Assembly (NCBI GenBank): GCA_037381915.1 | Contig: JARRQJ010000003.1 | Coordinates: forward strand, 71,794-135,793 | Origin: Gammaproteobacteria bacterium | Lineage (GTDB): Bacteria > Pseudomonadota > Gammaproteobacteria > DRLM01 | Reading direction: 5' to 3' | DNA: 64,000 nt | Part shown: positions 19,292-52,493 of the stretch, piece after piece | Position numbering within the stretch: the stretch's first letter is position 1 | How the letters are laid out: the number at the start of each line of letters is the position of its first letter | Notes under the pieces: model-generated | The model's database searches: none | What the model was told of the DNA's origin: nothing | What the model saw: the letters and a program-made list of their open reading frames with translations, nothing else | Translations under genes and position numbers: made by a program

Positions 19292-19368
19292 TGGTAGCGG
19301 GGGCAGGATTTGAACCTGCGACCTTCGGGTTATGAGCCCGACGAGCTGCCAGACTGCTCCACCCCGCA
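19292..19368 (-). tRNA. tRNA-Met (anticodon CAU), probable initiator tRNA-fMet
   Basis: 77-nt cloverleaf ending in encoded CCA; anticodon loop CTCATAA; GGG/CCC anticodon stem and an unpaired 1:72 position (T:T), both initiator hallmarks; close to E. coli tRNA-fMet; sits upstream of rimP-nusA-infB like metY. Confidence 0.85.
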
Positions 19369-39315: not shown

Positions 39316-40411
39316 TTACAATCCGCTCTTCAAGCTTGCTTCAATAAATCCGTCCAGATCGCCGTCCAGCGCCGCCTGGGTATTACCCACCTCGACGCCG
39401 GTACGCAGGTCTTTGATGCGGGACTGATCCAACACATAGGAGCGAATCTGACTGCCCCAGCCGATGTCCGACTTGCTGTCTTCCAGCGCCTGCTCGGCGA
39501 CGCGGCGCTTCTGCATCTCCATTTCATACAGCTTGGCCTTGAGCTGTTTCATGGCAGTGGCGCGATTCTTATGTTGCGAGCGATCGCTTTGACACGATAC
39601 CACGATACCGCTGGGAACGTGAGTAATGCGGATGGCCGACTCGGTGCGGTTGACGTGCTGTCCGCCGGCGCCGCTGGCGCGATAGGTGTCCACCTTCAAA
39701 TCCACGGGGTTGATTTCGATATCGATGTCATCGTCCACTTCCGGTGATATGAACACCGAGGCGAACGAGGTGTGCCGACGGTTGCCGGAGTCGAACGGCG
39801 ATTTACGGACCAGGCGATGCACCCCGGTCTCGGTACGCAACCAGCCGTAGGCGTAATCCCCCTCGAATTTCACCGTTGCGCTCTTGATCCCCGCCACTTC
39901 ACCGTCGGAGATCTCGATGATTTCCGTGTTGAAGCCGTGCCGCTCGCCCCAACGCAGGTACATCCGCAGTAGCATGTTGGCCCAATCCTGGGCCTCGGTG
40001 CCGCCGGAGCCGGCCTGGATGTCCATGAAGGCGTTGTTGGGATCCATCTCGCCGGAAAACATGCGGCGAAATTCCAGGGCTTCAAGGTGCCCTTCCAATC
40101 TGTCCAGGTCGGCAACCACCCCCTCCACCGTCGCCTCGTCCCCCTCCTCCTCGGCCAATTCCAGCAATCCGCCGGCGTCCTCCAAACCCGTGTCCAGTGA
40201 GCGGATGGTATTCACCACCTGTTCAAGCCTGGCCCGCTCCCTGCCCAAATCCTGGGCGCGCTCCGGTTTATTCCAGATATCAGGTTCTTCCAGTTCCCGC
40301 TCGACCTCCACCAACCGCTCACGCTTGGTGTCGTAGTCAAAGATACCCCCTCAGGGAGGCGGCCCGCTCCCTCATGTCGTCGATGCGTCTATATATGATA
40401 TTGATTTCCAT
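39316..40411 (-). CDS. prfB: Peptide chain release factor 2 with programmed +1 ribosomal frameshift
   Basis: Frame 0: ATG 40411 then [24 protein letters not shown] ending at an in-frame TGA (40339..40337). The sequence AGG GGG TAT CTT TGA C is the canonical RF2 autoregulatory shift site. The +1 frame continues [22 protein letters not shown].. to the stop at 39316. Contains the SPF and GGQ motifs. Confidence 0.9.
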
Positions 40412-40592
40412 AATGAAAATGTAGTTGCCCCATCAAAAATAGTTGGTGATTTTAGCACAACCGCCCAAGTCAGGCCTAACGTTTTCAAGGTGTTAATGCG
40501 TCAGCATACTACCGCGTGGCTTGCTTACCGGATACTTAATGACGCAGCGCTCTTACCTAAAGAAACAAAATGAAGGCTTGCCTTAATCCATT

Positions 40593-40612
40593 TTTGGGAT
40601 AGAATTCCCAAA
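40593..40612. promoter_or_regulatory. 20-bp palindrome TTTGGGA-TAGAAT-TCCCAAA about 82 nt upstream of cassette-1 gene A1
   Basis: Perfect 7-bp inverted arms; the same arms and spacing recur upstream of A2 (45098..45117); candidate operator for the cassette. Confidence 0.5.
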
Positions 40613-40693: not shown

Positions 40694-42196
40694 ATGATGA
40701 CGCAACAGCAGATCGCGATCGCGGGGACCGCCCTTGCAATCACGCTGACCCTCATGGCTTGTGGCAGCGGTAGCGACGGTACCAGCGGATCCCTGTCTTC
40801 CAGCTCGACGACAACGACCAGTCAAGGCGTCATTACCGGCTTTGGCAGCGTCTTCGTTAACGGCGTCGAATATTACATCGGCAACAACACCGCAATCAGT
40901 GTCAACGGACGTGATAGGTCGGAATCCGACCTGCAACTGGGCATGTTGGTCACTGTGAAAGGCACCGTAAACCCGGACGGCAAGATCGGCATGGCGAACG
41001 AGATCACCTACGCCAACCAGGTGAATGGCGTGGTAACCGCGAACACCGTAAGCAGCGACGGCACCGGCACCTTGACGGTCATGGGCCAAACCGTCACCGT
41101 CACCGCCGATACGGTGTTCGACAGTAACGTCGCCGGCATCACCTCGCCGGACCTCATACAAGTCGGCAACATCGTCGAGATCAGCGGCTATGCCTCGAAT
41201 ACCGGTGACATCACGGCAACCCGCATCGAGGTGAAGGCCAGTTCCCAGACGGCTGTAGCGATGATAGAGGTGAAAGGCGTCATCTCGAATCTCGACACGA
41301 CCACTTCCACGTTCACCATCGGCGGTCTGACGGTCGATTACAGCGGACTCAGCGCCGCCAACCTGCCCAGCGTCGCCCTCGCGGACGGCCTCTATGTCGA
41401 AGTAAAAAGCACGACGACCTTCGATGGGACTGGCCCGTTAGTCGCGAGCGCGATCTATCTGGAAGACGATGGTTTCAAAGGTCATGATGGCCACGAAGGC
41501 GAAGGTCTCGAAGTATGGGGCCTAGTCACCGCGGATTATGCCAATGGCCAGTTTGAGGTGAACGGACGCACCGTTCAGGTCGATGCAAACACTCTGCTCG
41601 TCAACGGCACCACCGACCAGTTGCTGACCGGCAACCAGATCAAGGTCCGCACTCACTATGACGCCAATGGCAATCTGGTGGCGGATAGGATCGAATTCAA
41701 ATTTACTACCGCATATGAATTCCAGGGAACCCTGCAAGCGGTCGACACCACAGCCGGCACGGTCACGGTGCTCGGTAAGACCATCTACGTCAACTCCAGT
41801 ACTCTCATGATGGACAAGAGCAGTGACGCCATGCGTTACTTCAGTCTCACCGACCTGGATCCCAATAACTCCGATTATCTCGAAGTCCATGCCTATAAGG
41901 ACGCCGCCACCGGCAACTTAATCGCCACCAAGCTGGAACGGGAAAGCTACTCGTCCCAGTCTAAGCTCATCGGGCCGGTGCAAGCCGTTAACAGCCTCGT
42001 CGTAGCCGACGTCCCCGTCGACACCTCCACCGCGGGCATCATTCCCACCCTGAATGTGGGCCAGACCGTGATGATCATCGGCAGCTATAGCAACGATACC
42101 TTGACGGCCACGAAGCTTTCAGTGGTTCAGCCCCTGGCGTCGGAGCATGGCTTTGAAACCTATCATGACAATCATTTCGACGAACATATGAGTTAA
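40694..42196 (+). CDS. Modular lipoprotein A1 (500 aa): signal peptide plus lipobox, Ser/Thr linker, then about 6 tandem beta-rich modules of ~75 aa (recalls DUF5666-type modules)
   Basis: AAGGAGC RBS; N-terminus MMTQQQIAIAGTALAITLTLMAC-GSGS (lipobox LMAC); repeated motif ..G.I..h.....F.V.GQTV.V.A.T.F.......L..G..VEV.G.....G.I.AT.IE..; paralog of A2. Confidence 0.8.
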   Translation: MMTQQQIAIAGTALAITLTLMACGSGSDGTSGSLSSSSTTTTSQGVITGFGSVFVNGVEYYIGNNTAISVNGRDRSESDLQLGMLVTVKGTVNPDGKIGMANEITYANQVNGVVTANTVSSDGTGTLTVMGQTVTVTADTVFDSNVAGITSPDLIQVGNIVEISGYASNTGDITATRIEVKASSQTAVAMIEVKGVISNLDTTTSTFTIGGLTVDYSGLSAANLPSVALADGLYVEVKSTTTFDGTGPLVASAIYLEDDGFKGHDGHEGEGLEVWGLVTADYANGQFEVNGRTVQVDANTLLVNGTTDQLLTGNQIKVRTHYDANGNLVADRIEFKFTTAYEFQGTLQAVDTTAGTVTVLGKTIYVNSSTLMMDKSSDAMRYFSLTDLDPNNSDYLEVHAYKDAATGNLIATKLERESYSSQSKLIGPVQAVNSLVVADVPVDTSTAGIIPTLNVGQTVMIIGSYSNDTLTATKLSVVQPLASEHGFETYHDNHFDEHMS

Positions 42197-42261: not shown

Positions 42262-43083
42262 ATGGCAACGGCACTCAATAAAGCCCTCTCAGCGGCGATC
42301 CTCAGGCTTCTCCGCCCTCTGGTACGCATATTGTTGCGCAATGGCGTTTCCTATAATGGCTTTGCTGATCTGGCGAAATGGATGTTCGTGGACGTCGCCG
42401 CCAAGGAATTCGGCGTCCCCGGACGTAAACAATCCGACTCGCGAATTTCTGTAGTTACCGGACTGACGCGCAAGGAAGTGGCGCGGGTCAAAGGCATTGA
42501 GACCCCGGACGACAGCGCTGCCGAACAGCAGTACAATCGAGCCGCCCGGGTCATCGCCGGGTGGTTGCGCGACCGACGCTTCTGTGCGCAGGACGGATCC
42601 CCCACGCTTCTCCCCTTTGATGGCGAAAACAGTTTCAGCGAATTGGTCAAATCCTACAGCGGCGACATGACTGCACGCTCCATTCTCGATGAACTAATAC
42701 GCGTCGGCGCGGTCGAACGCACTCAAGAGGGTATGATACATCTGCTTGTCTCAGCCTATGTACCAGTGGGCAGTGATGCCGGAAAGCTCCATATTCTCGG
42801 CACCGATATAGCTTTGCTCATTGGAACCATTGACCACAACATGCACGAGTCGCAACAACAACCCCGTTTTCAGCGCAAGGTTGCCTACGACAACCTGCCC
42901 GAAGAGGCTCTGCCCAAACTGCGGGAGTTGGCCAATGCTCATGGTCAGGCACTGCTGCAGGAAATCGATCGTTATCTATCTCAGCAGGACCGCGACATCA
43001 ATCCGGGCGTTGAGGGAACCGGACGCAAGCACGCGGGCCTAGGCATCTACCTATTCGAGGAAGATGTGCCCGAGGAGAATTGA
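42262..43083 (+). CDS. Cassette protein R1 (273 aa): soluble, uncharacterized, with an HTH-like segment (SRISVVTGLTRKEVARVK); paralog of R2
   Basis: About 70% identical to R2 by eye; no TM or signal peptide; stop TGA 43081-43083 lies 1 nt before the B1 ATG; C-terminal EDVPEEN codons encode the GAGGAGAA SD for B1. Confidence 0.75.
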   Translation: MATALNKALSAAILRLLRPLVRILLRNGVSYNGFADLAKWMFVDVAAKEFGVPGRKQSDSRISVVTGLTRKEVARVKGIETPDDSAAEQQYNRAARVIAGWLRDRRFCAQDGSPTLLPFDGENSFSELVKSYSGDMTARSILDELIRVGAVERTQEGMIHLLVSAYVPVGSDAGKLHILGTDIALLIGTIDHNMHESQQQPRFQRKVAYDNLPEEALPKLRELANAHGQALLQEIDRYLSQQDRDINPGVEGTGRKHAGLGIYLFEEDVPEEN

Positions 43084-43084
43084 C

Positions 43085-44623
43085 ATGGCAAGCCAGCGAG
43101 TCAGATATTTCAGCTTGATGACCGTATTTCTACTCGGTCTCGTGGCTTGCGGCGGCGGCACGCAGGTAGCCGGTGGCGGTATCGGTGGCACCGGCATCAG
43201 TCAGGGCCCTATCACTGGCTTCGGCAGCATTTTCGTCAACGGTGTCGAATTCAATACCGACAACGCTACCATCATCAAGGACGGCACAGCCATCGGCCCT
43301 GTTTCTACGAGCGAGCTGAAAAATTATTTGAAGGTCGGCATGGTGGTCACCGTTGACGGTAGCATCGCCAACAGCATCAGCGGCACGGCCGCCAGCGTGA
43401 CCTATGCCAAGGAATTGGAGGGACCCATCTCCGCCATCACGCTTCCCAACACTCTCTCCGTACTCGGACAAACGGTGATCGTGGACAATTTGACCAAGAT
43501 TGAGGTTGCGGGCTTAGCCACGCCGTCGATTTCCGATCTCGCGGTCGGCGACGTCGTCGAGGTAAGCGGTTATTCTACCGCCGCCGGTATTCGCGCCACC
43601 TATATCGACGCCAAACCAAGTGGTACAACGAAGGAATACGAATTAAACGGCATGATTGGCGCAATCAACGCAAGCAATCCCACCCTGCTCACCATCGGAA
43701 CCCAAACGGTGGATATCAACGGAGCCAGTTTTAACTTTACGCCGAAGGTCGGTGACTACGTCGAGGTCAAGGGCACAATCAGCGCGGGAGGCATTTTGGC
43801 GGCCACTTCGCTCGAACTCAAATCCCGTGCTTTAAACCTGGCGAATGCAGACAAAGCGGAAGTAGAAGGCTACGTCACGGCTACGACCTCCGCCACTGAG
43901 TTCGTACTAAACGCCCAAGTAGTACAGATCACCGCCCAAACCACGTTCAGCGGTGGCATCGCCTCCGATATTGTACCGGGAGTGATAGTTGAAGTTGAAG
44001 GATCCTTAGTCGACGGCACGCTCATCGCTACAAAGATATCCTTCGAGGATGATCTCGAATTGGAAGGAAATGTTGCAGCTATCAACACCTCCACAAACAC
44101 CTTAACCTTAGCTTCCTACCCCGCCATCAGTATCAGCTTCAGCGCCATTTTGACGGATCTTGAAGGCGTACCCAACTTCACTGCAATTAACCCCGGTGAC
44201 CATATAAAGGTACGGGGGCGTCCGCTGGACGCCTCCAACTGCAGTAGCGGGACATGTGTGTTGGCCACCCAGCTTACTCTGGAAAGCGCCGTCGCGGGAA
44301 GCACCGGCGGATCGAGCGGATCAACATCAACTGGCTCAAGCGGCTCAGGAAGCTCCACTGACAGTTCCGGTGGCTCGACCACATCGACAACGGACACCAC
44401 CACCGTCGAGCTTCAAGGCCCCATTGATAACATCGTACCTGGCCAAAGCTTCACCGTTCTCGGCGTTACGGTAGACGCTACTTCCCTGACCAGCTTTAGT
44501 GGCGATGGCATTACCGACAGCTCCACATTTTTTGACACGGTCAAAAGCGGCGATCTGGTCGATGTCACGGGGACACAAGTGGGCACGATTGTTACTTGGC
44601 AAGCGGTAGAACTAGACAACTGA
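43085..44623 (+). CDS. Modular lipoprotein B1 (512 aa): lipobox LVAC-GGG, Gly-rich linker, tandem beta-rich modules, Ser/Thr/Gly low-complexity tract and a conserved CxxxxC pair
   Basis: ATG 43085 with GAGGAGAA SD 7 nt upstream; N-terminus MASQRVRYFSLMTVFLLGLVAC; shares the module consensus of A-type but is a distinct subfamily; paralog of B2. Confidence 0.8.
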   Translation: MASQRVRYFSLMTVFLLGLVACGGGTQVAGGGIGGTGISQGPITGFGSIFVNGVEFNTDNATIIKDGTAIGPVSTSELKNYLKVGMVVTVDGSIANSISGTAASVTYAKELEGPISAITLPNTLSVLGQTVIVDNLTKIEVAGLATPSISDLAVGDVVEVSGYSTAAGIRATYIDAKPSGTTKEYELNGMIGAINASNPTLLTIGTQTVDINGASFNFTPKVGDYVEVKGTISAGGILAATSLELKSRALNLANADKAEVEGYVTATTSATEFVLNAQVVQITAQTTFSGGIASDIVPGVIVEVEGSLVDGTLIATKISFEDDLELEGNVAAINTSTNTLTLASYPAISISFSAILTDLEGVPNFTAINPGDHIKVRGRPLDASNCSSGTCVLATQLTLESAVAGSTGGSSGSTSTGSSGSGSSTDSSGGSTTSTTDTTTVELQGPIDNIVPGQSFTVLGVTVDATSLTSFSGDGITDSSTFFDTVKSGDLVDVTGTQVGTIVTWQAVELDN

Positions 44624-44942
44624 AAATGGAAAGTCTCCACCACCGCTAGAATTGCCTTTCGGCCTGCCGAATCCACCTTAAGCTTTTCTGGTGGGACCGA
44701 AAGCGTTTCTCTTGAGCGAGCTTCGCTGCTCTATACTCAGCCCTCATTGGCTACGGCGCATTGCGACACCATTGCAGGGCCACCCATACGAGCCCAACGC
44801 CCCCGCCCAAACGCAGAAAATCATCACGGCCGGGTTGTAGCTAGTCTCCGTAACTGTTCCTTTCCCACCAGCCATGCTGCGCTTGGCGCGTCGTCCCGGC
44901 GCAATCTCCTATGCAGTTCAAGCCAGGTGAGCCGCCTAGGAT

Positions 44943-44960
44943 GGGTATTCTGTGATACCC
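44943..44960. promoter_or_regulatory. Palindrome GGGTAT-TCTGTG-ATACCC in the inter-cassette spacer
   Basis: Perfect 6-bp inverted repeat with a 6-nt spacer, about 255 nt upstream of A2; significance unknown. Confidence 0.25.
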
Positions 44961-45097
44961 AACTGATTAGAATAATCACCATTCCCCAAACGATCCTAAC
45001 AGCGTGGATCGGCCTCTTCTCTCACCCACGGGCTGAATTACTCTGGAAATGTGACCCCACCCTCAGTTCCAGTATCTACTGCTTGCACGCCATCATT

Positions 45098-45117
45098 TTT
45101 GGGAATATTTTCCCAAA
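45098..45117. promoter_or_regulatory. 20-bp palindrome TTTGGGA-ATATTT-TCCCAAA about 81 nt upstream of cassette-2 gene A2
   Basis: Same arms and the same distance to the ATG as the element upstream of A1 (40593..40612); flanks are also similar (CATTTTTGGGA...TCCCAAATnC). Confidence 0.5.
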
Positions 45118-45197
45118 TGCAGAGCGCAACTTTTTGACGCCGCCTACCCGGTGGGCCCTGACAGAATTTTAATTATTAACAATAGAGGATTAATGTC

Positions 45198-46616
45198 ATG
45201 AAAAAACAATACATTGCACAATCCGCGATGGCGGCTGCCGTCTCCCTAGCTTTAGCTGCCTGTGGTGGCGGTAGCGCCGGTGGCCTAGCTTCATCCACAA
45301 CAACCCAGGGCGTCATTACCGGGTTCGGCAGCGTCTTTGTCAATGGAGTGGAATACAACACCGACTCCAGCACGGCCATCAATATGGAAGGCGTCGATAG
45401 CCCCGAATCCGCCCTCGAGGTCGGGATGCTTGTGACCTTGCAAGGTAGCGTCAATGCAGACGGCAAGACCGGGACGGCCAAGGCGATCAAATACTCCAAC
45501 CAAATGGAGGGGGTGGTCAATGCAAACAGTATCGCCGCCGATGGTACCGGCACCCTCACCGTGATGGGCGAAACCGTAAATGTCACCGCCGATACGATCT
45601 TCGAGAGTAAGGTCGCGGGGGTCACCGCTCTCAATCTCATCCAGGTAGGCAACATCGTGGAGGTCAGCGGCTACGCCTCAAGCACCGGGATAGTGATTGC
45701 TACGCGTATCGAAGTCAAGGCAGCGTCACAGGCACCAGGCTCCGTCATTGAGCTCAAGGGCATAATCTCCGGCCTCGATGCTACTAACAAGACCTTCATG
45801 TTCGGCAGTGTCACTGTAGATTACAGTGGGGTCACCCCAGCGGACATGCCCAGCGTCGGCTTGGCGAATGGACAATATGTCGAGGTCAAAAGCACCACCG
45901 CATACAACGGTACTGGCAACCTAGTCGCCGCCATCATCGAACTCAGTGATGATGGTGTGAAGGGGCATGACGGCAAGGAAGGCGAAGATCTTGAAGTCAA
46001 GGGCTTGGTCACGTCAAATTTCGCCAATGGTCAGTTCGAGTTGAACGGACGTGTTGTAACGGTTGATTCCAGCACCGAGTATGACAACGGTAGCACCGCA
46101 CAATTGCTGACCGGTGCAAAAGTCCAGATGGAGTCCCATTTTGACGCCAGCGGCAATCTGATCGCGGATCAAGTCGAATTCGAACAGACCTCTGAACTTG
46201 AATTCGCAGGGACCTTAGAGGCGGTCGATACAACAGCCGACACCGTCACGATCATGGGGCAGCAATTCTATGTGGACAACAACACCATCATGCTCGATGA
46301 CCTCAATGCAGTCCGCTTCTTTAAACTGGCCGATTTGTCTGTTGCCAATAGCGATCATCTGGAGATAAATGCCTATACAGATGCAGCTACGGGGCATCTC
46401 GTCGCCACAAGACTTGAACGCACGCAATTCGCTACAGAGGCAACGCTGACAGGGGTAGTGGATACCACTAATACGTTGACAGTATCGGGTGTTCCCGTTG
46501 ACACGTCTACGACGACCGGAGTTATTCCAACTCTGACCACCGGCAGCAAGGTGGAAATCACCGGCACCTATATCAACGGCGTACTGTATGCCAGCCAAAT
46601 AAACCTGGCGATCTGA
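45198..46616 (+). CDS. Modular lipoprotein A2 (472 aa), paralog of A1
   Basis: AGAGGA RBS; MKKQYIAQSAMAAAVSLALAAC-GGGS lipobox; the same ~6 modules in the same order as A1 (for example TLTVMGETVNVTADTIFESKVAGVTALNLIQVGNIVEVSGYASSTG). Confidence 0.8.
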   Translation: MKKQYIAQSAMAAAVSLALAACGGGSAGGLASSTTTQGVITGFGSVFVNGVEYNTDSSTAINMEGVDSPESALEVGMLVTLQGSVNADGKTGTAKAIKYSNQMEGVVNANSIAADGTGTLTVMGETVNVTADTIFESKVAGVTALNLIQVGNIVEVSGYASSTGIVIATRIEVKAASQAPGSVIELKGIISGLDATNKTFMFGSVTVDYSGVTPADMPSVGLANGQYVEVKSTTAYNGTGNLVAAIIELSDDGVKGHDGKEGEDLEVKGLVTSNFANGQFELNGRVVTVDSSTEYDNGSTAQLLTGAKVQMESHFDASGNLIADQVEFEQTSELEFAGTLEAVDTTADTVTIMGQQFYVDNNTIMLDDLNAVRFFKLADLSVANSDHLEINAYTDAATGHLVATRLERTQFATEATLTGVVDTTNTLTVSGVPVDTSTTTGVIPTLTTGSKVEITGTYINGVLYASQINLAI

Positions 46617-47458
46617 TGAGGCTACGCAAGCTTGATTGGTGTAACCGGACCGCGGCAATTGTCCGCCTGCTTCGCCCGCTGATCCGCATCTTGCTGCGTA
46701 ACGGCATCTCCTATAACGCTTTTGCGGATTTGGCGAAATGGGTATACGTAGATGTGGCGAGCAAAGAATTCACCGTGCCGGGGCGCAAGCAATCCGTTTC
46801 ACGTATTTCGGTGATTACCGGCTTGACGCGCAAGGAAGTTGCGCGCGTTAAAAGCATCACCGTCCCTAGCGATACCGATGAAGCTGCGCAATACAACCGT
46901 GCGTCACGTGTAATTGGTGGGTGGCTACGCGATCGCCGCTTTTCCCCGCAAGATGGACTTGCCGCGCCACTCCCATTCGATGGCGTCGGAGGCTTTAACG
47001 AGCTCGTCAGAACCTACAGTGGCGACATGACGGCGCGAGCCATGCTTGATGAGCTACTTCGGGCCGGCGCCGTTTCTCGGGATCAGAACGGTGCCATTCA
47101 TCTCCTAGCCTCCGGTTACATACCTAAGGACAGTGATCCCGCCAAGCTCAATATCCTTGGCAGCGACGTGGCGCTGTTGATCGGTACTATAGACCATAAC
47201 TTGCAGATCTCCGAGGAACCGCCTCGCTTTCAACGCAAAGTCGCCTATGACAACCTTCCCGTGGAGGCGCTCCCCAAACTCAGAAAATTCACCCAAGAGC
47301 GCGCCCAAGCTGTACTCGAAGAAGTCAACCGCTATCTATCCCAACAAGATCGCGACATCAATCCATCCATGCAGGGTTCCGCCCGAAAGAACGCCGGCAT
47401 CGGCATTTATTATTTTGAAGAGGATGTGCCTGAGGAGAACGAAAATGGCAATTCATAG
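46616..47458 (+). CDS. Cassette protein R2 (280 aa), paralog of R1
   Basis: ATG overlaps the A2 stop (TGATG); same HTH-like segment SRISVITGLTRKEVARVK; C-terminal ..EDVPEENENGNS overlaps the B2 start by 14 nt. Confidence 0.75.
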   Translation: MRLRKLDWCNRTAAIVRLLRPLIRILLRNGISYNAFADLAKWVYVDVASKEFTVPGRKQSVSRISVITGLTRKEVARVKSITVPSDTDEAAQYNRASRVIGGWLRDRRFSPQDGLAAPLPFDGVGGFNELVRTYSGDMTARAMLDELLRAGAVSRDQNGAIHLLASGYIPKDSDPAKLNILGSDVALLIGTIDHNLQISEEPPRFQRKVAYDNLPVEALPKLRKFTQERAQAVLEEVNRYLSQQDRDINPSMQGSARKNAGIGIYYFEEDVPEENENGNS

Positions 47459-48827
47459 ATTCATTCACACTACATTAATCTCACTCCTGGTGGCCGGCAT
47501 GGTCGCTTGCGGCGGCACCCAATTGGCCGGTGGCGGCATCGGCGGAACCGGCATCAGCCAAGGCCCCATTACCGGGTTCGGTAGCATCTTCGTTAATGGC
47601 GTCGAATTCAACACTAACAACGCCACCATAATCAAAGACGGCCTTCCGGTTACGCAAAAAGATCTGAAGGTCGGCATGATAGTCACTGTTAGCGGTAACA
47701 TCGCCACCAGCACCAGTGGCACAGCGGCCACCGTAACCTACGCCAAAGAACTACAAGGACCGATTACCGCCATCACTCTCCCCAACACCCTCACCGTACT
47801 AGGTCAAGAAGTAAATGTTGATAACTTTACCAAGATTGAGGTAACGGGTGTATCGTCCGCGGGAATCGCCAATCTTAATCTGCAGGACACGGTAGAGGTC
47901 AGCGGATTTCCCGCAGTGAATGGCGCTATTCGCGCCACTTACATCGAGGTTAAACCACCCAGCGCCGACGTCGAACTCACAGGATTTGTCAGCGCAAGTG
48001 CAAACAAGGTCGTTACCATCGGTACTCAGGCGGTGGATATCAGCGCTATCAACCCATTAGTCACGCCTGTGCTCGGCGAGTACGTGGAAGTGAAGGGTGT
48101 CCTGAGTGGGACGATTTTGCAGGCAAGCTCTTTTGACGCGAAGTCTCGCTCACTGGAATCCACCAACGCCGACAAGGCGGAACTGCAAGGTCTTGTCAAC
48201 AGCGTGAACTCCTCGACCGAGTTTCTGATAAACGGCCAGGCGGTACAAACGAGCTCACAAACGAATTTCAATGGCGGCACTGCCGACGATATTAACGTCG
48301 GACAGTGGCTTGAAGTTGAAGGTAGCCTGGCAAACGGCGTACTCATCGCCGCCACGGTAACTTTCGAAGATGATATAAGCCTGGAAGGTAATGTAGCCGC
48401 CTTAAACGGCAATAGCATAAGCCTAGACGGTTATCCCGGCATCAGCATAGAAGTGAATGACGTATTGACCGATGGCAGTACCAATCCGCATGGCATTGGA
48501 GACCATGTAAAGATTCGGGGCCGCAAACTCAGCTCGAGCTGTGGCACAGCGGTATGTCTGCTCGCAACGGAACTCGAGTCAACGACGATAAGCGGTGCAA
48601 CACCGATGGAACTGCAAGGGCCGCTCGAGGCATTTGATCCCGCGGCTGGAACCATTACCGTCCTTGGAATCACGATAGATACATCGCCTATTCAAAGCTT
48701 CAGCGGTACCGGCATTACGGACGCTACGAGCTTCTTTAATACCGTCAAAATCGGCGACCTGATCGATACCACTGGTAGCCAAGTGGGCGGCGCAATTACC
48801 TGGCAAGCGATAGAATTGAATGACTAA
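47445..48827 (+). CDS. Modular lipoprotein B2 (460 aa), paralog of B1
   Basis: ATG 47445 with GAGGAGAA SD; MAIHRFIHTTLISLLVAGMVAC-GGTQ lipobox; the GGGIGGTGISQGPITGFGSIFVNGVEFNT block is identical to B1; conserved SSCGTAVCLLATEL Cys pair. Confidence 0.8.
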   Translation: MAIHRFIHTTLISLLVAGMVACGGTQLAGGGIGGTGISQGPITGFGSIFVNGVEFNTNNATIIKDGLPVTQKDLKVGMIVTVSGNIATSTSGTAATVTYAKELQGPITAITLPNTLTVLGQEVNVDNFTKIEVTGVSSAGIANLNLQDTVEVSGFPAVNGAIRATYIEVKPPSADVELTGFVSASANKVVTIGTQAVDISAINPLVTPVLGEYVEVKGVLSGTILQASSFDAKSRSLESTNADKAELQGLVNSVNSSTEFLINGQAVQTSSQTNFNGGTADDINVGQWLEVEGSLANGVLIAATVTFEDDISLEGNVAALNGNSISLDGYPGISIEVNDVLTDGSTNPHGIGDHVKIRGRKLSSSCGTAVCLLATELESTTISGATPMELQGPLEAFDPAAGTITVLGITIDTSPIQSFSGTGITDATSFFNTVKIGDLIDTTGSQVGGAITWQAIELND

Positions 48828-50247: not shown

Positions 50248-51201
50248 TCAGGCCGAGCGCAGGAAATGCACGCTGAACAGCGCCTCCGAGTCGGTCCATA
50301 CCCGCAGCGGCCGATAACCGGCACGACGGGCAAGCGCTTGAAACTCCTCGATGCTGTATTTGTAGGAGTTTTCGGTATGAATCGTCTCGCCTTCATCCAG
50401 GCTGAACTCGTGGCCGCCGACAACCACGCTCTGGGCTCGGCGGCTGATCAGATGCATCTCGACCCGCCCTTGCTGGCGATTGTAAAAGGCCTGGTGCCGA
50501 AAACCGTTGAGATCGATATGGGCGTCCAGATCGCGCTGCAGCCGGCCGAGAATATTGAGGTTGAAGGCGGCAGTGACACCGGCCGCGTCGTCGTACGCGG
50601 CTTCGATGCGCTTCACTTCCTTCTTGAGATCGATGCTGAGCAGCAGGGAGCCGCCCTCCCCCAGCAGATTGCGGAGATTGGCCAAAAAGGCCACCGCCGC
50701 ATCGGGTTCAAAGTTGCCCAGTGTCGAGCCGGGAAAGAACGCCACCCGCTTGGCGCCTTCGGGGAAAAAGTCCAGATTCAACGGTTGGCAGTAATCGGCG
50801 CAGACGGGATGGACTTCCAGCCAGTCATAATCCGCGGCGAGGGCCTCGGCGGAGCTGCGCAGCTGCTGGCGCGAGATATCGATGGGCACGTACATGGCGG
50901 GACGCAGGTGTTCGAGCAGCAGCCGTACTTTCACCCCCGCGCCGCTGCCCAGTTCCACCAAACAGGCGTCCTCTTCCACCAGCGCGGCCATTTCTCCGGC
51001 GTGGCGTTCCAGGATGGCGATCTCCGTGCGGGTGAGATAATACTCCGGCAACTCGCAGATGCGTTCGAACAGTTGCGCGCCGCGATGATCGTAGAACAGT
51101 TTGGGCGGTAATGCCTTCGGGGTCGCGGCCAGGCCTGCGAGCACCTCGCTCATCAAGCTTGCAGAACTCGGATGATAATCGTGGAAATAGACGCCGGCCA
51201 T
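50248..51201 (-). CDS. egtD: L-histidine N-alpha-methyltransferase EgtD (ergothioneine biosynthesis)
   Basis: 317 aa; SAM-methyltransferase motif LVELGSGAGVK; EgtD-like sequence (YVPIDIS, FFPGSTLGNF). Confidence 0.8.
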   Translation of the reverse strand: MAGVYFHDYHPSSASLMSEVLAGLAATPKALPPKLFYDHRGAQLFERICELPEYYLTRTEIAILERHAGEMAALVEEDACLVELGSGAGVKVRLLLEHLRPAMYVPIDISRQQLRSSAEALAADYDWLEVHPVCADYCQPLNLDFFPEGAKRVAFFPGSTLGNFEPDAAVAFLANLRNLLGEGGSLLLSIDLKKEVKRIEAAYDDAAGVTAAFNLNILGRLQRDLDAHIDLNGFRHQAFYNRQQGRVEMHLISRRAQSVVVGGHEFSLDEGETIHTENSYKYSIEEFQALARRAGYRPLRVWTDSEALFSVHFLRSA

Positions 51202-52493
51202 TATCTCGGATCGTCCGCCAGGCGGATGCCGCTGAATTGCCAGCGATCGGCGGGGTAAAAGAAATTGCGGTAGCTGGCGCGGATGTGACCCGCCGGGGTG
51301 GCACAGGAGCCGCCGCGCAACACGATCTGATTACACATGAATTTCCCGTTATATTCGCCGAGCGTGCCGGCCAGGGGACGAAAACCCGGATAGGCGACAT
51401 AGGGGCTTTGCGTCCATTCCCATACATCGCCGTAGAGCTGCCGCATCCCCGCGCCCTGCGCGGCCATGGGATGATAACGGTCCGTGCCTTGAAGATTGCC
51501 GGTCACCGTCGCTTGCCGCGCCGCCACTTCCCACTCCGCTTCGGTGGGCAGACGCCTGCCGGCCCAGCGGGCGTAGGCATCCGCCTCATAATAACTCACG
51601 TGGCAGACCGGTTCATGCTCATCCACCGCGCGCATTCCGGCAAGGGTCATGTGCCGCCAGCCCCCGTCGCCGTATTCCCAATAAAGGGGGGCCTCCCAGC
51701 TGCGTTCCCTGACCGTGCGCCAGCCTTCCGACAACCAGTATTCCGGGCGTCGATAGCCATCATCCGCCATGAACTCCAGATATTCGCCGTTGGTGATCGG
51801 ACGTGAAGCCAGACGAAAGTCCTCAAGATAGACGCGATGGCGCGGGGTTTCATTGTCGTAACAAAACGCCTCCCCCGCGTGACCGATCTCATAAAGGCCG
51901 CCCGCGAATTCGTGCCATGCTGGCGCCGGGGGCGGCGCCGACACCCCGCGCCCCGTGTCCTGATATACCGGACACAGAGGCTGGGAGGCAAAGATATGCT
52001 TGATATCGGTGAGGAGCAATTCCTGATGCTGCTGCTCATGGTGGATACCGAGCGTAGCGCGGAAAGCCACATCCGGCCATTGTTGGTCCGGCATGCAGTC
52101 GATCAGCCGCACCATCCACTCATCGACATGATGTCGATAGCGATAAACCTCCTCCAGCGCCGGACGCGACAGAAAGCCGCGTCGGGACCGCGGATGCATG
52201 GGGCCCGCGCCTTCATAGTACGAGTTGAACAATACGGCGAATTGGGGATGGAACTCGCGATAATCGGACAGGAACGGCTTCAGCAGAAAGGTCTCGAACA
52301 ACCAACTGACATGAGCGAGGTGCCACTTGGGCGGACTGACGTCGGGCATGGTCTGCATGCAGCAGTCCTCCGCCGACAACGGCGCGCATAATTTCTCGCT
52401 CATGCCGCGTACGGACCGATAGTGCGACAACAGGGCTTGTCGCTCCGGCATAGCCGTTTCATTTCTCAGAGCCCTATCCGTCGGCGACGCCAT
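51201..52493 (-). CDS. egtB: Hercynine oxygenase / sulfoxide synthase EgtB (DinB_2 plus FGE-sulfatase domains)
   Basis: 430 aa; N-terminal DinB-like region with the HEQQHQELL iron-binding motif; C-terminal FGE-like domain; overlaps the egtD start. Confidence 0.8.
   Translation of the reverse strand: MASPTDRALRNETAMPERQALLSHYRSVRGMSEKLCAPLSAEDCCMQTMPDVSPPKWHLAHVSWLFETFLLKPFLSDYREFHPQFAVLFNSYYEGAGPMHPRSRRGFLSRPALEEVYRYRHHVDEWMVRLIDCMPDQQWPDVAFRATLGIHHEQQHQELLLTDIKHIFASQPLCPVYQDTGRGVSAPPPAPAWHEFAGGLYEIGHAGEAFCYDNETPRHRVYLEDFRLASRPITNGEYLEFMADDGYRRPEYWLSEGWRTVRERSWEAPLYWEYGDGGWRHMTLAGMRAVDEHEPVCHVSYYEADAYARWAGRRLPTEAEWEVAARQATVTGNLQGTDRYHPMAAQGAGMRQLYGDVWEWTQSPYVAYPGFRPLAGTLGEYNGKFMCNQIVLRGGSCATPAGHIRASYRNFFYPADRWQFSGIRLADDPR

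Follow-up and report, generated by a model that had tools for sequence, protein, structure and literature searches.

DUF6502 proteins as probable helix-turn-helix autorepressors of DUF5666 lipoprotein operons in sulfur-cycling bacteria

Operon autorepressors of the TetR, MarR and DeoR/SorC types act from an operator placed over the promoter of the genes that they control, and they are one kind of described system with which the locus presented here can be compared. Another is HetR, an activator and the master regulator of heterocysts in filamentous cyanobacteria. It consists of a five-helix DNA-binding domain (residues 1-98) that includes a helix-turn-helix (HTH) of two helices, a flap (99-216) and a hood (217-299), it contacts DNA through Arg62, Glu71, Lys73, Arg74 and Lys76, and its consensus site is GGG-N5-CCC (PMC4649674). 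Here we analyse R1 and R2, two paralogous proteins encoded in tandem cassettes on contig JARRQJ010000003.1 of a Gammaproteobacteria bacterium (assembly GCA_037381915.1), within a 64-kb stretch that was analysed as a whole and is hereafter called the window. Both belong to DUF6502, which on the basis of sequence comparison and structural modelling is probably a previously unrecognised HTH family, the members of which would bind as dimers to a palindrome upstream of their own operon and repress it until a signal relieves the repression. A preliminary description of the locus had called R1 and R2 possible autoregulators, and this idea now finds computational support in the conserved linkage of R to a lipoprotein gene, the conservation of the palindrome, its register with the promoter and the HTH fold predicted for the protein.

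R1 and R2 are 70% identical over 264 aa (E = 4e-134) and match Pfam PF20112 (DUF6502) along their full length, with 293.2 and 283 bits against a cutoff of 27 (E = 1.6e-87 and 2.1e-84, respectively), covering profile positions 2-266 of 268. The segments initially recognised as common to both proteins, LLRPLxRILLRNG..FADLAKW, SRISV(V/I)TGLTRKEVARVK and QQDRDINP...GIY(L/Y)FEEDVPEEN, are all present; they are shared because the proteins are paralogs, and they are also conserved family-wide. Residues that are invariant in 26 relatives include P19, R61, T66, G67, L68, R70, K71 and R75 and, further on, Q204-K206, Y209-N211, D243-D245 and F265-E266, the C-terminal half of the family being marked by the motifs FQRKVxYDNxP, DRDxNP and GxGIYYFE. 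Within the HTH segment R1 and R2 are near-identical, with one V/I change in the first helix and identical recognition helices. Both proteins are soluble, as had been proposed, the highest 19-residue Kyte-Doolittle mean being 1.34 and lipobox and signal peptide being absent. They are also uncharacterized: the Pfam names and descriptions assign no function to DUF6502 or to DUF5666, there is no NCBIfam model for R, none of the PADLOC and PHROGs models matches R1, and our literature searches retrieved no paper that mentions DUF6502 and none on the operator, the promoter architecture or the pairing of DUF6502 with DUF5666. The family is nonetheless a large one, with at least 5,503 matches at 90%-identity clustering in a word-indexed search and 4,552 representatives at 50% identity (E <= 1e-3) in an exhaustive search. 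Sulfur-oxidising symbionts (Thiodiazotropha, tubeworm endosymbionts) commonly carry it, as do sulfate reducers and Nitrospirota, and a homolog is found in the isolate genome of Inmirania thermothiophila; a protein identical to R is deposited at NCBI as 'DUF6502 family protein' from a Gammaproteobacteria metagenome-assembled genome (MAG). R1 and R2 are ordinary members of a known but unstudied family, and the new elements are the proposed functional assignment, the operator/promoter architecture predicted for it and a structural resemblance to HetR that is weak but intriguing.

The AlphaFold2 model of R1, built on a 113-sequence alignment, reached a mean predicted local distance difference test score (pLDDT) of 91.5 and a predicted template modelling score (pTM) of 0.76. 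It consists of an N-terminal domain (residues 1-103) of five helices (2-26, 31-49, 59-66, 70-77 and 85-103), a middle domain (104-170) with a winged-helix-like unit of two helices and a beta hairpin (125-161), and a C-terminal domain (171-273) with two long helices (172-195 and 214-242) and an ordered tail. The segment SRISVVTGLTRKEVARV, which had been noted as HTH-like, does form a helix-turn-helix in this model (residues 59-77). The N-terminal domain is strongly basic, with an isoelectric point (pI) of 10.65 in R1 and 11.12 in R2, whereas the other two parts are acidic (pI 4.6-5.1), and for this reason the N-terminal HTH is the likely reader of DNA. Comparison with solved structures retrieved DNA-binding domains only, HetR being the best, though weak, match over the full length; the prediction thus favours a DNA-binding fold over an enzyme or a chaperone.

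Conservation of gene order links R to one particular kind of neighbour. Our sample comprised 80 DUF6502 loci, each from the genome of a different species, and covered sulfur-oxidising Gammaproteobacteria (Thiodiazotropha, Sedimenticolaceae, tubeworm endosymbionts, Thiohalomonadales, Thioploca and Parabeggiatoa), Desulfobacterales (including Desulfosarcina) and Nitrospirota. A gene for a DUF5666 lipoprotein directly follows R on the same strand at 77 loci, mostly overlapping it or only a few nucleotides apart, and the pairing is still seen at 37-38% identity; in one of the three exceptions the contig stops about 140 nt past R. In a distant lineage represented by two loci (L091 and L092) R is followed instead by a different secreted protein and an M48 peptidase. 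An upstream A-type gene accompanies R at only about 14 of the 80 loci, and the universal partner of R is the downstream lipoprotein, not A. No other neighbour is conserved across phyla in the sample; gatCAB upstream and mreBCD downstream, considered as functional neighbours, were set aside as ordinary synteny restricted to Gammaproteobacteria. Adjacency to modular lipoproteins is therefore the rule for R homologs. The preliminary description also had R either regulate the A/B lipoproteins or assemble with them. Assembly is unsupported because the proteins end in different compartments, R having no export signal and being cytoplasmic while A and B are exported; regulation, in turn, is favoured by the conserved site, the promoter and the HTH fold.

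The exact sequence TTGGGA-N6-TCCCAA occurs just twice in the window (40594-40611 and 45099-45116), about 85 nt upstream of the start codons of A1 and A2, and the second copy is the best-conserved block when both upstream regions are aligned. Across the 80 loci exact TGGGA-N6-TCCCA was found at 57 in the interval from -450 to +40 of the first open reading frame (ORF) of the operon. After correction of ORF starts that had been extended too far, another four loci show the site shortly before the true start of R, and eight carry it with one mismatch. Ten specified bases in a 490-nt interval of uniform composition would be met by chance with a frequency of about 4.7e-4 per locus, i.e. at about 0.04 loci in 80, and the remaining flanks (about 800 kb) contain only 11 exact sites, mostly adjoining the R operon. 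Since palindrome-bearing loci span Gammaproteobacteria, Desulfobacterales and Nitrospirota, the conservation first noticed between the two cassettes extends across phyla.

The placement of the palindrome is conserved as well. In 81 aligned sites a TTGAC motif starts 17 nt upstream of the palindrome (T 58, T 65, G 50, A 48 and C 35 of 81) and the spacer reads TATAAT, or ATATAA completed by the T of TCCCA, the consensus across sites being that of a sigma-70 promoter with TTGACA at 16-17 nt spacing. Because the promoter register is fixed in these sites, the -10 hexamer can be placed within the palindrome itself. In the window, the predicted operator of the first cassette (O1) coincides with an independently scanned promoter, TTGCCT-16-TAGAAT; the promoter of the second is a poorer consensus match, under the threshold of the promoter scan, and its register fits the 81-site consensus. 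A gap of 2-4 nt separates the end of the palindrome from the ATG of R (TCCCAaatATG) at 11 or more of 72 loci and also at the distant L089. Loci with this short gap (L018, L022, L042, L043, L056, L060, L063, L064, L066, L073, L076, L084 and L089) include many from Desulfobacterales and Nitrospirota, among others, and with transcription predicted to begin at the R start codon or directly beside it, the R mRNA would be leaderless. In other lineages the 5' untranslated region measures about 50-90 nt or 170-330 nt, or the site precedes A as in the window, and tubeworm symbionts have one site before A and a second before R. Paired palindromes 24-26 bp apart were found at four loci (L006:6079/6104, L027:6454/6480, L053:6318/6344 and L081:9993/10017), the second lying past the -10 box.

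An inverted repeat in this position could also be read as an RNA hairpin acting on transcript stability or attenuation and unrelated to R, all the more so where the site lies between A and R, as in the tubeworm symbionts, and would be contained in read-through transcripts. We hold this to be highly improbable: with the predicted start downstream of the left arm most transcripts could not contain the hairpin in full, the stem would measure just 5-7 bp and enclose an A/T loop, and what is conserved in the spacer is the -10 box and not a loop sequence. Rfam and tRNA scans of the whole window returned nothing in the cassette region, their sole match being a tRNA at 19295-19368. A terminator was rejected on similar grounds, there being no U tract and the left arm lying upstream of the predicted start.

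If the palindrome is an operator, the question arises as to which protein reads it. R is the sole non-exported protein that always accompanies the site. Three lines of evidence tie the palindrome to R and not to the lipoprotein or to a global regulator: its persistence in the distant lineage mentioned above, additional sites close to R and a reverse scan. In L091 and L092 the exact palindrome still precedes R even though the downstream gene is not DUF5666. In particular lineages, additional exact sites precede other operons near R, namely those of an ATP-grasp gene upstream of R (L054:7028); of a 719-aa lipoprotein just upstream of R in a Sedimenticola MAG (L038:5648-7902), in which an N-terminal DUF5666 domain is fused to multihaem cytochrome domains (Cytochrome_C7, MtrC/MtrF-like); of a GT28-type glycosyltransferase followed by a second apparent glycosyltransferase gene (L081:9993 and 10017); and of a MobB/DUF1611-like P-loop protein, an ABC transporter, an esterase and a porin (L057:2434, L059:10348, L060:10169, L065:2406 and L083:15139). 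Such sites are as expected of a trans-acting factor with a small regulon, and the operons behind them are candidate members of it. In the reverse direction, a metagenome collection scanned for TTTGGGA-W6-TCCCAAA yielded at least 120 stretches; a DUF6502 gene lies beside the site in 29 of the 120 matches listed, and DUF6502 or DUF5666 in 33, the DUF6502 operon being by far the largest single class among them.

Several observations nevertheless count against R as the reader of the site or against its autoregulation. Of 85 loci for which enough upstream sequence is available, about 10 lack a palindrome that can be recognised, and in the window R1 sits 65 nt past A1 and has no Shine-Dalgarno sequence. 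DUF6502 has no sequence-level tie to known HTH families: a Pfam scan of 113 aligned members at E <= 1 disclosed no recurrent HTH, sigma or HetR family, and searches of PDB by sequence and by family profile gave noise only, for the most part antibodies and designed helical repeats. The motif also occurs apart from R, as about 18 of the 120 matches listed belong to one unrelated high-GC locus, where the 20-bp palindrome TTTGGGATATTTATCCCAAA occupies a divergent intergenic region beside an FlhC-like gene (Pfam FlhC E = 0.0017, below cutoff) and no DUF6502 is present (e.g. L112:3223-3242 and about 17 similar stretches, among them L097, L104, L120, L123, L138, L149, L150, L160 and L163); this locus is possibly a mobile element. 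Among the matches listed, an AAA_14/DUF4143 ATPase is common to another six, and those left over are singletons. Compared for covariation, recognition helix and operator both proved nearly invariant; the TGLSRKEI subgroup has a TCCTA arm at its own promoter in 5 of 6 cases, too few to call.

The occurrence of the motif at loci without R fits an explanation in which another regulator, encoded elsewhere, binds the palindrome and R is a cytoplasmic accessory of the lipoproteins, such as an enzyme acting on them, a factor for their assembly or a chaperone needed before export. The co-translation of R with B, whose Shine-Dalgarno sequence lies inside the last codons of R, points the same way, as do the many invariant polar residues in the C-terminal half of R, a possible catalytic or binding site. 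We consider this explanation unlikely, since a regulator from elsewhere would have to keep the same specificity in Gammaproteobacteria, Desulfobacterales and Nitrospirota and to target this operon every time, the palindrome stays with R where the lipoprotein does not, and the N-terminal domain of R combines its strongly basic character with canonical HTH geometry.

In the mechanism that we favour, a dimer of R would sit on tTGGGA-N6-TCCCAa through the HTH at residues 59-77, with contacts made by the near-invariant R61, T66, G67, L68, R70, K71, E/D72 and R75 to half-sites with a centre-to-centre distance of 11 bp, or roughly one turn of the helix. In this position R would lie over the -10 hexamer, that is, the N6 spacer, of a near-consensus sigma-70 promoter and occlude RNA polymerase, thereby switching off its own gene together with those of one or two lipoproteins of OB-fold repeats (A and B), in a negative autoregulation. 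Release would follow a signal, possibly a ligand, that is probably sensed at the conserved acidic C-terminal half. Both copies of the duplicated cassette in the window would respond through an operator-promoter of their own before A; the identity of the recognition helices leads us to expect cross-regulation, each R acting on both operators.

The same binding could conceivably serve HetR-like activation or dual regulation, HetR being both an activator and the best full-length structural match. The paired sites at some loci and the poor hexamers of cassette 2 (TTGCAC and TATTTT), which could signal a need for activation, would be in keeping with such a role. It appears improbable to us in view of the location of the site, which has the -10 hexamer at its centre and keeps this register in nearly all of the 81 aligned sites, and of promoters that are mostly near-consensus (TTGACA/TATAAT), at which activation should be needless. 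At bacterial promoters, a dimer bound over the -10 box is the classical arrangement for repression.

The features of the window on which the autorepression proposal is based are compiled in Table 1. The cassettes follow each other in tandem as A1-R1-B1 and A2-R2-B2, flanked by lysS/prfB on the minus strand and by a 2-hydroxyacid dehydrogenase gene, and R is the best-conserved part of the duplication, its paralogs being more alike than those of A and B.

Table 1. Genes and predicted regulatory elements of the two cassettes (positions in the window)
Feature	Position	Strand	Description
Cassette 1 sigma-70 promoter (predicted)	40578..40605	+	-35 TTGCCT 40578-40583, 16-nt spacer, -10 TAGAAT 40600-40605; promoter scan
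Operator O1 (predicted)	40593..40612		TTTGGGA-TAGAAT-TCCCAAA; the spacer is the -10 hexamer itself
A1	40694..42196	+	500-aa lipoprotein, lipobox LMAC, six DUF5666 repeats (Pfam PF18914, E = 1.6e-50)
R1	42262..43083	+	273 aa, DUF6502, predicted HTH repressor; HTH residues 59-77 at nt 42436-42492
Shine-Dalgarno GAGGAG for B1	43072..43077	+	Within Glu-Glu codons of the R1 C-terminal tail
B1	43085..44623	+	512-aa lipoprotein, lipobox LVAC, OB-fold (DUF5666) chain
Cassette 2 promoter (predicted)	45083..45111	+	-35 TTGCAC 45083-45088, 17-nt spacer, -10 TATTTT 45106-45111
Operator O2 (predicted)	45098..45117		TTTGGGA-ATATTT-TCCCAAA
A2	45198..46616	+	472-aa lipoprotein, 59% identical to A1
R2	46616..47458	+	280 aa, DUF6502; first ~12 residues non-canonical in the window
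Shine-Dalgarno GAGGAG for B2	47432..47437	+	Equivalent arrangement within the R2 tail
B2	47445..48827	+	460-aa lipoprotein, lipobox MVAC, 52% identical to B1; overlaps the R2 end by 14 nt

Tight translational coupling had been ascribed to R1 and R2 and holds at three of the four junctions, the 65-nt gap between A1 and R1 described above being the one that departs from it. The TGA of R1 (43081-43083) is followed by the ATG of B1 at 43085, the stop of A2 and the start of R2 overlap as TGATG (46614-46618), and the ATG of B2 (47445) lies inside R2. In both cassettes the GAGGAG located 7 nt before the start codon of B is coded by the conserved acidic ..PEEN tail of R, an overlap that may account for part of the conservation of this tail. 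The A2-R2 junction (46590-46660) differs among four near-identical assemblies (L001-L004): in L002 and L004 about 95 additional nt contain the canonical R2 start MDTAFINAISAAIV... as well as a GC-rich hairpin, a deletion of greater size in L001 takes away the C-terminus of A2 (423 aa vs 472), and L003 has yet another deletion. In the window R2 starts at the ATG that overlaps the A2 stop, its first residues corresponding to intergenic DNA of the sibling assemblies. The coupling of A2 to R2 is therefore specific to the window sequence, given the additional nucleotides and the other R2 start of the siblings, and the missing stretch of about 95 nt may be either a genuine deletion or an assembly artefact.

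Two further observations concern the surroundings of the cassettes. Downstream, two overlapping minus-strand genes (50248-52493) encode a Methyltransf_33 protein (EgtD-like) and a DinB_2/FGE-sulfatase protein (EgtB-like), the domain make-up of ergothioneine synthesis. Upstream, prfB (release factor 2; 39316-40420, minus strand) has 365 aa in the NCBI record and 331-332 aa by plain ORF finding, a mismatch consistent with the programmed +1 frameshift that is usual in this gene.

The putative targets of R are lipoproteins of a single kind. A1, A2, B1 and B2 each have three to six stretches matching PF18914 (DUF5666; E 1e-37 to 1e-50) and a signal peptide with a lipobox Cys (LMAC, LVAC, LAAC and MVAC), and the predicted model of B1 is a chain of OB-fold barrels. 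A Ser/Gly/Thr-rich low-complexity linker in B1 (residues ~405-437, nt ~44300-44400; pLDDT < 50) is absent from B2, and the single weak PHROG match of B1 is to a family of unknown function. In the literature, we found DUF5666 listed in tables only. In Dissulfuribacter thermophilus disproportionating thiosulfate, a DUF5666 protein is one of the 20 most abundant (PMC13490349), which hints at a major place for these lipoproteins in the envelope of sulfur-cycling bacteria. This abundance and the fusion of DUF5666 to an MtrC-like cytochrome under a copy of the predicted operator provide leads on the role of the lipoproteins. The autorepression hypothesis is concrete and cheaply testable, comprising a protein, an exact operator of 16-20 bp, a promoter register and a predicted regulon with a DUF5666 core. 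If confirmed, it would add a transcription-factor family wholly missed by sequence-based HTH models, offer a handle on the timing of abundant envelope protein production and provide an example of a leaderless autorepressor across phyla.

Among the known systems, the TetR-, MarR- and DeoR/SorC-type autorepressors would share with R the operator over the promoter; R has no sequence membership in any of these families, and none of them matches its three-domain architecture over the full length. The likeness to sigma-70 region 4 put forward in the preliminary description stands as a generic tri-helical HTH resemblance at the level of the domain structure, but not as membership, since R lacks sigma regions 2 and 3 and no Pfam Sigma70 model, Sigma70_r4 included, matches at E <= 1 among the 113 family members; moreover, region 4 targets the -35 hexamer, whereas the predicted target of R is a symmetric palindrome.

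HetR is the closest solved full-length structure, not the family of R. For this comparison we used Pfam PF03574 (Peptidase_S48) and PF18460 (HetR_C), the PDB entries 4izz, 4j00 and 4yrv, and an Anabaena HetR query sequence checked against 4hri/4yrv. HetR and the R1 model both have a layout in three parts, the proteins are of similar size (299 aa for HetR, 273 aa for R1), the HTH of HetR and the predicted one of R1 lie near the same residue numbers, with Arg61, Arg70, Lys71, Glu72 and Arg75 of R1 facing the set of HetR contacts listed at the beginning, and a GGG...CCC palindrome is the site of HetR and the predicted one of R. There are also differences. The spacing in the R site is GGG-N8-CCC (TGGGA-N6-TCCCA) and thus departs from the N5 of HetR, its position on the -10 box implies repression whereas HetR activates, and DUF6502 is found in sulfur-cycling Proteobacteria, Desulfobacterota and Nitrospirota whereas HetR is cyanobacterial. 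The full-length template modelling score (TM-score) between the R1 model and HetR is a weak 0.33-0.37. Alignment of the DUF6502 profile by hhalign to a single HetR and to a 16-sequence HetR alignment, a shallow profile in which all HetR hits are at least 86% identical, gave a probability of 0.2-0.5%, that is, no detectable sequence homology, and the Pfam HetR models match neither R1 and R2 nor the 113 relatives. No PatS-like peptide partner of R was identified, small peptide genes not having been searched for, and we found no paper on 'HetR-like' proteins.

It is tempting to speculate, as an unlikely possibility, that DUF6502 proteins are very distant relatives of HetR, in which case the three-domain design would pre-date cyanobacterial multicellularity and be widespread in sulfur-cycling Proteobacteria, Desulfobacterota and Nitrospirota. 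The flap and hood of HetR have reportedly been described as novel folds, and a recent phylogenomic study is said to place the origin of HetR within the cyanobacteria. Were the kinship true, the common design would be an intertwined HTH dimer on a GGG...CCC palindrome, a flap and a signal-binding hood, deployed in DUF6502 as a leaderless autorepressor of surface OB-fold lipoproteins whose C-terminal domain would sense a peptide or a small ligand.

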